DNA of 64,000 nt from a virus, in the IMG/VR virus record IMGVR_UViG_3300023179_000037, positions 47,976 to 111,975 of that record. One strand, written 5' to 3'. Below the pieces are notes generated by a model. The model did not search any database and was not told the origin of the DNA. It worked only from the letters and a program-made list of their open reading frames with translations. Shown one piece after another: positions 49,899 through 55,798 of the stretch (position 1 is the first letter of the stretch; every line of letters starts with the position of its first letter). The position numbers and the translations under genes are program-made.

Positions 49899-49924
49899 AT
49901 ACTGATTTAATTTGGTATTTATAT
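49893..49924 (+). promoter_or_regulatory. Late promoter TATAAATA embedded in a hairpin that occludes the downstream start codon
   Basis: ATATAAATAC (49893-49902) is complementary to GTATTTATAT (49915-49924); ATG at 49923. Confidence 0.75.
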
Positions 49925-50321
49925 GTGGATGTATCAGAATAAACCGCTAGAAGAAATTCCAGAAAATGCATATGGTTTTGTTTATTTGATCACTAATAAC
50001 GACAATGGCAAAAAATACATAGGCAAAAAGTTATTTTGGTTTAGAAAAACTAAAATATTAAAGGGTAAAAAGAAAAGATACAAAATTGAATCTGATTGGA
50101 AAACTTACTGGTCCTCATCCGAAGAGGTTAAGTCCCTTGTTCAAAACTTAGGAGAGCAATTATTTACCAGAGAAATACTTCACATTTGCGAGAGTAAGGG
50201 AATGTGTAATTATTTAGAAGCAAGGGAACAAATGGACAGAAGAGTTTTAGAATCAAATGATTACTACAATGGCACCATACAGTGCAGAATACATAAAACT
50301 CACGTAAAGTTAAAAGATTAA
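49923..50321 (+). CDS. GIY-YIG endonuclease (Seg/endonuclease II-like)
   Basis: YGFVYLITN....KKYIGKK, REIL, YYN. Confidence 0.85.
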   Translation: MWMYQNKPLEEIPENAYGFVYLITNNDNGKKYIGKKLFWFRKTKILKGKKKRYKIESDWKTYWSSSEEVKSLVQNLGEQLFTREILHICESKGMCNYLEAREQMDRRVLESNDYYNGTIQCRIHKTHVKLKD

Positions 50322-50322
50322 T

Positions 50323-50356
50323 CTTAATCATAATTTAATCTTGCGCAGACTATAAA
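50323..50356 (+). promoter_or_regulatory. Putative OmpR/PhoB-family operator (11-bp periodic YTTAAT repeats) with -10 element
   Basis: CTTAATCA-TAA-TTTAATCT, then TATAAA at 50351. Confidence 0.45.
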
Positions 50357-50393
50357 AATAATTAAATATTAATGTAGGTAAATTTTTTACTAT

Positions 50394-50499
50394 CAGGCAA
50401 ATTTGACATTTTGATGACAAGACATTTTTTTTACGTTAGAAAATGCAGATAGGTTCAGTTACTAACTGAATTTCGTAAATCAAGATGCAAAGATGCCTG
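50394..50499 (+). ncRNA. Structured 5' leader RNA (three-way junction), riboswitch candidate
   Basis: CAGGCA/TGCCTG, TTTG/CAAA, CATTTTGAT/ATCAAGATG, CATTTT/AAAATG and AGGTTCAGTT/AACTGAATTT pairings. Confidence 0.55.
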
Positions 50500-50532
50500 C
50501 CCTTATTTTCATTTTACGTTTAGGAGATATAT

Positions 50533-51177
50533 ATGCGACTTCAAGAATTGGCAGCAAGATTAGTTGTAGTAGAAACAAAATTAGCAACTCTTACAGGGGT
50601 ACAACCCAATACATCAAGTCCAGTAAGTGTTGAGGAGCTGGATTCGAGATTATCAGTTGTAGAAGTACAAGTAGATCGTTTATTGGCAGAAAAAGCTGAG
50701 AAACAAGTTGCAGATATCGTAGCTGCTTCTCCTGATAAAGCACCAGTATCAGTTGCGGATATTGTTGCATTATCTGCTAGCTCAAATGTTCCTCAGGCTG
50801 CAGATATTGTTGCAGATGTTTTAGCTGTTCAAATGGAAGCACCCGCAATTCAAGATCCAGAAGTTGCAGCTATTGTAACTGCAGCTATTAAGGCAGTTAT
50901 AAGCGCTGATCCTGAAGTTGTTGCAGATCCTGCAGCTATCAAAGCAGTTATTACTGAAACTGTTGCACATATGCCTGCTCCTGCATCTGATGTTGAAGAT
51001 CAGGTTACTGCAGCAATTGCAGAAGTTTTAGCAGCAGCAACTGGTCAAGAAGTAACTAAAGATGAACACGAAGAAATACGAGATGCAGTGATAACACCAT
51101 CCGATACTGCGCTAGATGCAATTGAAGCAAGATTAACTGTTGCCGAAGCAAAGGTTGAAAGCCTGTTGGGAAAGTAA
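50533..51177 (+). CDS. Acidic Ala/Val-rich protein with three RLxxxE coiled-coil segments
   Basis: Strong AGGAG RBS; ARLVVVE, SRLSVVE, ARLTVAE. Confidence 0.75.
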   Translation: MRLQELAARLVVVETKLATLTGVQPNTSSPVSVEELDSRLSVVEVQVDRLLAEKAEKQVADIVAASPDKAPVSVADIVALSASSNVPQAADIVADVLAVQMEAPAIQDPEVAAIVTAAIKAVISADPEVVADPAAIKAVITETVAHMPAPASDVEDQVTAAIAEVLAAATGQEVTKDEHEEIRDAVITPSDTALDAIEARLTVAEAKVESLLGK

Positions 51178-51236: not shown

Positions 51237-51986
51237 ATGCACTACCGATCCATCTTCATATCTGATGTACATTTAGGTAGTAAAGGTTGTAAGGCGGAAT
51301 TATTAGTAAATTTTCTTAAAAATAATTCCGCTGATAAGTTATATCTTATAGGTGACATAGTTGATGGTTGGAAAATTCAACAAAATAAATGGGCTTGGAA
51401 ACAAGCCCATTCCAATGTAGTTCGTCGAGTCTTAGGACACGCAAAACAAGGAACTGAAGTATTTTATGTAGCCGGAAATCATGATGAATTTCTTAGACCT
51501 CTAATACCTTATGGTATATCGTTTGGTAGAATACATATAATTAATCAAATGTCTCACATCGGTATCGATGGAAAAAGATATTTGGTATTACATGGTGATC
51601 TATTTGATGGTATCTCAAGACTTGCTCCCTGGATAAGTTTTTTAGGAGATAAGGCATATGATTTACTACTCATCTTCAATACTTCATTCAATCGTTGGAG
51701 GCATAGATTCGGATTCGGTTATTGGTCTCTTTCTCAATTTCTTAAACAACGTGTCAAGCGGGCTGTGGACTTTATTTTTCATTTCGAGCGCAATCTCATT
51801 GACTATGGCCGTAAGCGTGGGTTTGACGGAGTCATTTGTGGACACATCCACAAACCAGAAATCAAAACCATAGATGGATTTGTATATATGAATGATGGTG
51901 ACTGGGTAGAATCATGTAGTGCTTTAGTTGAACATCCTAATGGTCGTTGGGAAATAATTTATTGGACCAAAGAAATTCCGGAATAA
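51237..51986 (+). CDS. Metallophosphoesterase, PlcP/LpxH-like
   Basis: FISDVHLG, GDIVDGW, GNHD, HGD.FD, CGHIH, N.GDWVESCSALVE. Confidence 0.85.
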   Translation: MHYRSIFISDVHLGSKGCKAELLVNFLKNNSADKLYLIGDIVDGWKIQQNKWAWKQAHSNVVRRVLGHAKQGTEVFYVAGNHDEFLRPLIPYGISFGRIHIINQMSHIGIDGKRYLVLHGDLFDGISRLAPWISFLGDKAYDLLLIFNTSFNRWRHRFGFGYWSLSQFLKQRVKRAVDFIFHFERNLIDYGRKRGFDGVICGHIHKPEIKTIDGFVYMNDGDWVESCSALVEHPNGRWEIIYWTKEIPE

Positions 51987-55492: not shown

Positions 55493-55798
55493 ATGATGAG
55501 AAAAAAGCGATCTGACAGACGTCACATTGTATACATGCTACAGAACACCGTAACAGGCGAGTTCTACATTGGTGTTACTCAGGGATTTAGACAAAAGGAT
55601 CTTCGTGTACGAGTGCTAAAGCACTTTCAGAGGGCCCTAGCAGAGTCTAAAGACTGGGCATTGTGCAAGAATATTCGCACATACGGCCCTGAGAGCTTCT
55701 TCTGGACCATCTTAGAAGTCGTGAAGGGCAAAGTGCCAGCGCATGACTTCGAGCGTCTGCTGACCAAGATGTACAAGCCAGAGTTGAACACCCAGTAA
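55493..55798 (+). CDS. Small GIY-YIG family protein
   Basis: HIVY.L......FYIGVT...R...H...E...LN. Confidence 0.75.
   Translation: MMRKKRSDRRHIVYMLQNTVTGEFYIGVTQGFRQKDLRVRVLKHFQRALAESKDWALCKNIRTYGPESFFWTILEVVKGKVPAHDFERLLTKMYKPELNTQ

Follow-up and report, generated by a model that had tools for sequence, protein, structure and literature searches.

The window, by which we mean the whole stretch of 64,000 nt analysed here, makes up the 3' 64 kb of an IMG/VR phage contig with a length of 112 kb and an estimated completeness of 66%. Its GC content is 35.9% and essentially all genes lie on the + strand. Positions 50322-50532 form a gap of 211 nt flanked by a SegE-like GIY-YIG gene upstream and by gene X downstream. 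A sequence-only reading had singled this out as the longest non-coding gap, and it is indeed the longest internal + strand gap without an ORF of at least 60 aa. The features of the locus are:

49923-50321, + strand: SegE-like GIY-YIG homing endonuclease gene (Pfam PF19835, E 4.6e-39), adjoining the promoter upstream
50322-50385, + strand: promoter region left over from pstS; in relatives, the homologous DNA precedes an intact or partial pstS
50323-50341, + strand: two 8-mers, CTTAATCA and TTTAATCT, 3 nt apart (11-bp phase), a putative Pho-box-like site
50364-50369, + strand: TAAATA, a -10-like hexamer whose spacing from the boxes is constant across all related loci
50392-50503, + strand: pstS relic, what remains after decay of pstS nt ~694-820 (codons ~232-273), from nhmmer and alignments
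50394-50499, + strand: three-way-junction RNA of 106 nt, with a basal stem P1 in three segments and hairpins P2 and P3
50522-50526, + strand: Shine-Dalgarno AGGAG of gene X, read from the sequence
50533-51177, + strand: gene X, the first gene of the island, 214 aa, Ala/Val/Glu-rich, located directly after pstS in relatives
51237-51986, + strand: LpxH/PlcP-like metallophosphoesterase gene, next in an operon-like run (Pfam Metallophos, E 9e-13)

Gene X has no Pfam or PHROG family match. Its homologues are 77-90% identical in six IMG/VR contigs (L002-L007) and 51-59% identical in the more distant loci L040-L062. NCBIfam LpxH models match the metallophosphoesterase, yet under their cut-offs; the gene is followed by a RimK-type ligase, a second phosphoesterase and a GT4 glycosyltransferase, and many phage contigs have it in linkage with pstS and a GT4 gene. 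The cassette of pstS, PlcP-like esterase and GT4 is widespread in phage contigs and occurs in either gene order (L063-L142, 80 IMG/VR loci). The endonuclease gene is not part of the RNA element, because it is missing from L003, the other genome bearing the relic described below, which has a 54-aa ORF in its place. Where the window has the SegE-like gene inserted, immediately before the pstS-type promoter, relatives carry other small ORFs. Another GIY-YIG ORF, which is shorter (55493-55798, 101 aa) and has PHROG homing-endonuclease matches, lies 5 kb downstream.

Folding with ViennaRNA yields the same basal stem and two hairpins that had been proposed from the letters of the sequence. P1 is composed of the segments 50394-50399/50494-50499, 50402-50405/50488-50491 and 50407-50415/50479-50487 and closes the hairpins P2 (50423-50445) and P3 (50451-50473). 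The minimum free energy of the junction is -32.1 kcal/mol compared to -16.0 ± 2.9 kcal/mol in 200 dinucleotide shuffles (z -5.6), none of which is as stable, and the junction is kept when the whole intergenic region is folded. The - strand of the window is weaker (-24.7 kcal/mol), the + strand being more stable by 7.4 kcal/mol; in all forms of the element the + strand is more stable by 2-9 kcal/mol, owing to G-U pairs. From the 3' end of the junction it is 22 nt to the AGGAG and 33 nt to the ATG at 50533, which makes the distance of about 30 nt to the ribosome-binding site given in the sequence-only reading roughly right. A covariance model, R1, scores the junction with 66.3 bits and shows it to be single-copy, a search with R1 revealing no second copy in the window's contig; elsewhere R1 matches the pstS gene of L052, the partial copy of L002 and two weak candidates at E ~0.003-0.005.

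The origin of the element becomes apparent from related phages, in which positions 50392-50503 of the window can be aligned base for base with an internal stretch of the pstS coding sequence (MAFFT, blastn). We built a nucleotide HMM of this segment (150 columns, pstS nt ~685-835) from 12 intact phage pstS genes, and its top nhmmer match in the window, with both strands searched, is 50393-50503 (E 1.5e-4; 9e-7 without null2), the next best match in the window having an E value of 0.12. The same model matches L003:2813-2922 (E 1e-10). The window was missed by an HMM of the full-length pstS gene. In the reading frame of pstS, the relic of the window contains an in-frame stop codon and a 1-nt deletion causing a frameshift, and both hairpin tips are shortened. 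No match to PstS was obtained by tblastn in the window or in the 112-kb contig, the latter being ~66% complete. The element therefore is a pseudogene fragment, with only ~112 nt left.

It lies at the syntenic place, with the pstS promoter on one side and gene X on the other. In L004-L007 a 336-aa ORF is found directly upstream of gene X, 9 nt away, and this ORF encodes a true PstS (NF008171/TIGR00975; NF008171 scores 393.9 bits versus a cut-off of 339), which is 51% identical to Salmonella PstS. L003, a different contig, harbours the same relic with nearly identical boundaries and without the endonuclease gene. A third state is present at L002:2655-2985, in which a deletion of nt 81-744 of pstS joins the signal peptide in frame with the C-terminal third; this copy has two 1-nt deletions resulting in frameshifts, and the 5' half of the junction is gone. 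As L002 decayed by another route, pstS must have been lost repeatedly in this phage group, and as the 5' half of the junction was lost with it, at least one lineage can do without the element. Among cellular proteins, PstS of freshwater Burkholderiales (Limnohabitans, Hydrogenophaga, Polaromonas) is closest, with 70-76% identity, suggesting a freshwater betaproteobacterial source of the phage pstS gene. A blastn search against phage GenBank records gave no DNA match, and scanning viral and metagenome collections for further short-loop relics returned only the L003 contig already known plus chance matches. We consider it nearly certain that the element is a pstS relic located behind a pstS promoter, with a fold inherited from the coding sequence. 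The element is not a dedicated leader, being a fragment of a pstS pseudogene.

The fold is already present in intact pstS genes. The coding segment L004:2674-2793 forms the same three-way junction (-54.5 kcal/mol, z -4.4), and shuffling synonymous codons with protein and codon usage kept gives z -5.2 to -6.1 in four intact genes. When the whole pstS gene is scanned with a sliding window of 120 nt, the junction segment is the only outlier. The fold is strong in part of the phage genes: among 55 distinct segment sequences, taken from an unbiased, protein-seeded set of 80 phage pstS loci, ~13 have z values of -4 to -6.5 relative to synonymous-codon shuffles, eight of -2.4 to -3.6 and ~34 between +1.8 and -2.1, and the closest bacterial pstS genes (n=13) range from -2 to +0.1. 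The junction is absent from more distant phage pstS genes and from these bacterial genes, and is thus an innovation of one phage pstS sub-clade, which also gave rise to the relic. Fold strength showed no link to the genes downstream of pstS.

Compensatory changes among homologues, which the sequence-only reading had set as its own test, were found both in the pstS clade and in the two relics. Across 20 pstS genes and the two relics, 91.8% of cells are paired, versus 37-42% with slid partners. Pairs changed on both sides number 12, compared to 6.3 in shuffles (0/500), and several of them connect third codon positions that are synonymous and 15-63 nt apart (columns 29-92, 32-53 and 35-50); the covariation in the coding sequence follows clades, so that these counts stand for few independent events and part of them may reflect one or two.

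Upstream of the relic the pstS promoter has been retained. By blastn, the promoter region matches L002:2578-2644 (E 3e-7) and L003:2729-2790, and the same promoter architecture is found upstream of pstS in L004, L006, L031 and L002 and upstream of the relic in L003. The two 8-mers at 50323-50330 and 50334-50341 are followed by a degenerate third 8-mer, 10 nt and the TAAATA hexamer. This is the layout of a Pho-box promoter, in which two or more direct repeats of 7-8 bp in 11-bp phase replace the -35 element about 10 bp upstream of the -10 element. The box pair has its sole zero-mismatch match in the 64 kb at this site, and the extended -10 motif TTAAATATTA likewise occurs only once in the 64-kb window. 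Both 8-mers fit PyTTAAPyPy(T/A), which is the cyanobacterial Pho-box consensus (quoted in PMC10976474); Pho-box predictions in phages are described as unreliable in the same paper (PMC10976474). The pstS genes of the closest bacteria (70-76% identity) have TGTCA-type boxes upstream, unlike the box type of the window. The 8-mer pair is Pho-box-like and might serve as a site for an OmpR/PhoB-type activator. By analogy with related loci, the transcript would start at about 50375-50378, and a start near 50375 leaves about 18 unpaired nt before the junction. Where the transcript is predicted to begin, shortly before the junction, a weak 5-bp hairpin (GUAAA/UUUAC, 50378-50391) can be drawn that L003 lacks. 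Because the promoter of the island is that of the former pstS gene, gene X and the PlcP-like esterase, and probably the later genes as well, are likely expressed as a phosphate-starvation module.

The sequence-only reading had interpreted the structure as a cis-regulatory RNA or riboswitch candidate, possibly a permuted yybP-ykoY Mn2+ sensor controlling the phosphoesterase island. A stable multi-helix junction in the 5' leader ahead of metal-dependent phosphoesterases would agree with such a sensor, and the presence of a stable RNA structure on the sense strand before the island is supported. A riboswitch match or an expression platform was not found. Not a single Rfam 15 family reaches the gathering score in the 64 kb; the yybP-ykoY family RF00080, whose model has conserved L1/L3 loops on a scaffold of four helices, is absent from the window at the gathering score and from 50250-50600 at E<=10, where a permissive scan returned only two chance matches far under the gathering score, STnc340 (E 2.3) and the plant snoRNA snoR9 (E 4.6). 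The yybP-ykoY idea thereby fails on the covariance-model search that could have supported it, the likeness being limited to a multi-helix leader RNA near genes of metal-dependent enzymes, whereas architecture and origin differ and no covariance-model match appeared at the thresholds tried. A scan of 50322-50532 showed no intrinsic terminator, the basal stem is not followed by a U run in L003 or in the intact loci, and in the fold of the whole intergenic region the ribosome-binding site is unpaired with the junction; a terminator or attenuator and sequestration of the ribosome-binding site were rejected on these grounds. The distance from the structure to the start codon varies from 33 nt in the window to 83 nt in L003 and about 200 nt in intact pstS loci, and most relatives have the structure within an open reading frame, where it is translated as part of PstS. 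With no platform, a variable distance to the start codon and translation of the element in most relatives, we regard a ligand-sensing riboswitch as very improbable. The riboswitch interpretation is mostly wrong, the object being a folded gene relic, possibly with a new role. Even less probable, to the point of having hardly any chance, is an element acting at the DNA level, i.e. a homing-endonuclease target, a recombination site or a replication signal tied to the GIY-YIG gene: the SegE-like gene does lie 70 nt upstream, but in L003 the relic occurs with no endonuclease gene, Rfam gave neither a group I intron nor another match, and the higher stability of the + strand, brought about by G-U pairs, points to RNA and against a DNA-level element. 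Two further candidates were dropped, a leader peptide (a 12-codon ORF at 50487), which is missing from L003, and a group I intron, suggested by the GIY-YIG neighbour, for which there is no Rfam match, the flanks not being halves of one gene and the endonuclease being absent from L003.

What has to be weighed with more care is neutral decay, according to which the fold is debris inherited from a self-complementary coding stretch and was kept by A+T-biased transitions together with quasi-palindrome correction, having no function at present. The element is demonstrably a pstS fragment, pstS decays by several routes within this clade, and half of the junction was lost in L002. The central junction helix of the window is partly broken. 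Most double changes run from C-G to U-A or from G-C to A-U; C-G to U-A changes are expected anyway from A+T-biased transitions, and templated correction of quasi-palindromes could give paired changes without selection. Moreover, only two relic genomes are known and they share one origin, so that the evidence from the relic phase rests on few independent events. Against neutral decay, random substitutions of the same spectrum almost never keep the fold. We simulated relics starting from the pstS consensus, keeping the indels of the relic and placing the same types and numbers of substitutions at random sites. The simulated relics of the window fold with -17.4 ± 3.3 kcal/mol versus -32.1 kcal/mol observed (1/1500), those of L003 with -15.3 ± 3.1 kcal/mol versus -26.1 kcal/mol observed (4/1500); the L003 relic by itself has a free energy of -27.2 kcal/mol (z -4.4). 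Three pair differences between the window and the L003 relic are fully compensatory, and one of them, a change specific to the window from U-A to C-G at the pair 50398/50495, opposes the A+T drift. The relics are 73% identical compared to 56% at four-fold sites of the adjacent gene (Fisher p 0.015), and relic and promoter form islands of conservation, the spacers beside the relics not being alignable. In addition, both deletions end within a few nt of the junction base. Taken together, we consider neutral debris rather unlikely and think that the fold is probably maintained by selection at the RNA level. This leaves the way in which a selected fold may act. An autonomous RNA, cut from the leader or from pstS mRNA and acting in trans or binding a protein, e.g. 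as a small regulatory or decoy RNA, would be compatible with the sparing of exactly this module by the deletions, with the single-stranded A/U-rich flanks on both sides and with the unpaired junction strands TCGTAAATCA, GATGA and GACATTT, which are unchanged in both relics and in the pstS clade. However, the conserved junction bases are also under coding constraint in pstS, and the element is single-copy and missing from most phage pstS genes, making such an RNA quite improbable.

The reading we favour, with a probability of roughly 0.6, is that a sense-strand RNA structure stemming from pstS and under selection persisted beyond the loss of its gene and at present makes up the 5' leader of an operon that is probably controlled by phosphate starvation. 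The closest relatives have the order Pho-type promoter, pstS (336 aa), gene X and PlcP-like esterase. In the window and in L003, pstS has been deleted on both sides of nt ~694-820, fusing this segment to the pstS 5' UTR, in the window 33 nt from the start of gene X, and the segment spared is the sole part of pstS with a very stable three-way junction in the mRNA of the sub-clade. Once the coding role was lost, both hairpin tips were shortened and the sequence drifted towards A+T while the pairing was kept by compensatory changes. The operon would probably be switched on by phosphate starvation, presumably through PhoB-type control. Tentatively, the junction might act in cis on the fate of the transcript, by affecting its stability or processing or by holding ~110 nt of leader in a fold of their own, off the ribosome-binding site 22 nt downstream, which would stay free. 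The structured leaders found before gene X in distant relatives fit such a role, while the about 18 unpaired nt before the junction are a poor fit to a classical 5'-terminal protective hairpin. More doubtful still is that a functional RNA evolved within phage pstS, survived the deletion of the gene through selection of its own and may now be an autonomous RNA, binding a protein or ligand or acting in trans, in a phosphate-starvation regulon.

If the fold is truly selected, phage auxiliary metabolic genes can carry in-frame RNA signals that are missed by protein-centred annotation, and a structured non-coding leader can arise directly from coding sequence, with ancestral, intermediate and derived states all at hand for experiment. 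If the fold is only inherited debris, it advises caution, as an intergenic region with a z-score of -5.6 can be a pseudogene.

The promoter resembles that of phage pstS genes under host PhoB/Pho-box control, as in the cyanophages P-SSM2 and S-PM2d (PMC10976474), in having predicted phased 8-mer boxes fitting PyTTAAPyPy(T/A), and the linkage to further phosphate-starvation genes, here a PlcP-like esterase and a GT4 gene, is shared as well (compare PMC4796936). Unlike in the cyanophages, pstS is reduced to a non-coding fragment of ~110 nt, and the protein of the relatives is of the betaproteobacterial type, 70-76% identical to Burkholderiales PstS, and not cyanobacterial. The descent of the element calls to mind a different group of RNAs. 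Small RNAs and regulatory elements derived from degraded protein-coding genes are reported in enteric bacteria, and the element described here is likewise non-coding and descended from coding sequence; it differs in that its fold demonstrably predates the loss of the gene and in that full-length, half-deleted and minimal-relic stages survive in sister genomes.

Stem-loops in 5' leaders such as the ompA 5' UTR and the T4 gene 32 leader stabilise bacterial and phage mRNAs. As in these leaders, a stable structure is located between promoter and ribosome-binding site, and distant relatives have a simple covarying hairpin right after the TAAATA -10 hexamer in front of the same gene, whereas the structure of the window, a three-way junction of 106 nt, stems from coding sequence and starts ~18 nt into the predicted transcript. 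These distant gene X loci have TGTCA-type Pho boxes at the equivalent position and the same TAAATA hexamer, followed by the short hairpin with covarying stems. In L040-L056, the gene X homologue is preceded, ~60 nt upstream (locus ~2440-2500), by a promoter of its own made up of E. coli-type Pho boxes with TGTCA repeats in 11-bp phase and of TAAATA. A hairpin of 5-7 bp begins 5 nt past the hexamer, its stems covarying between loci (GUGCCA/UGGCAC, GUAGG/CCUAC, GAGUGGA/UCACUC), and it looks like a conserved 5'-terminal stem-loop. The loci L057-L062 have phased boxes of the TTAAT type upstream of the gene X homologue, as in the window and not of the TGTCA type, and tRNA-like sequences lie immediately upstream.
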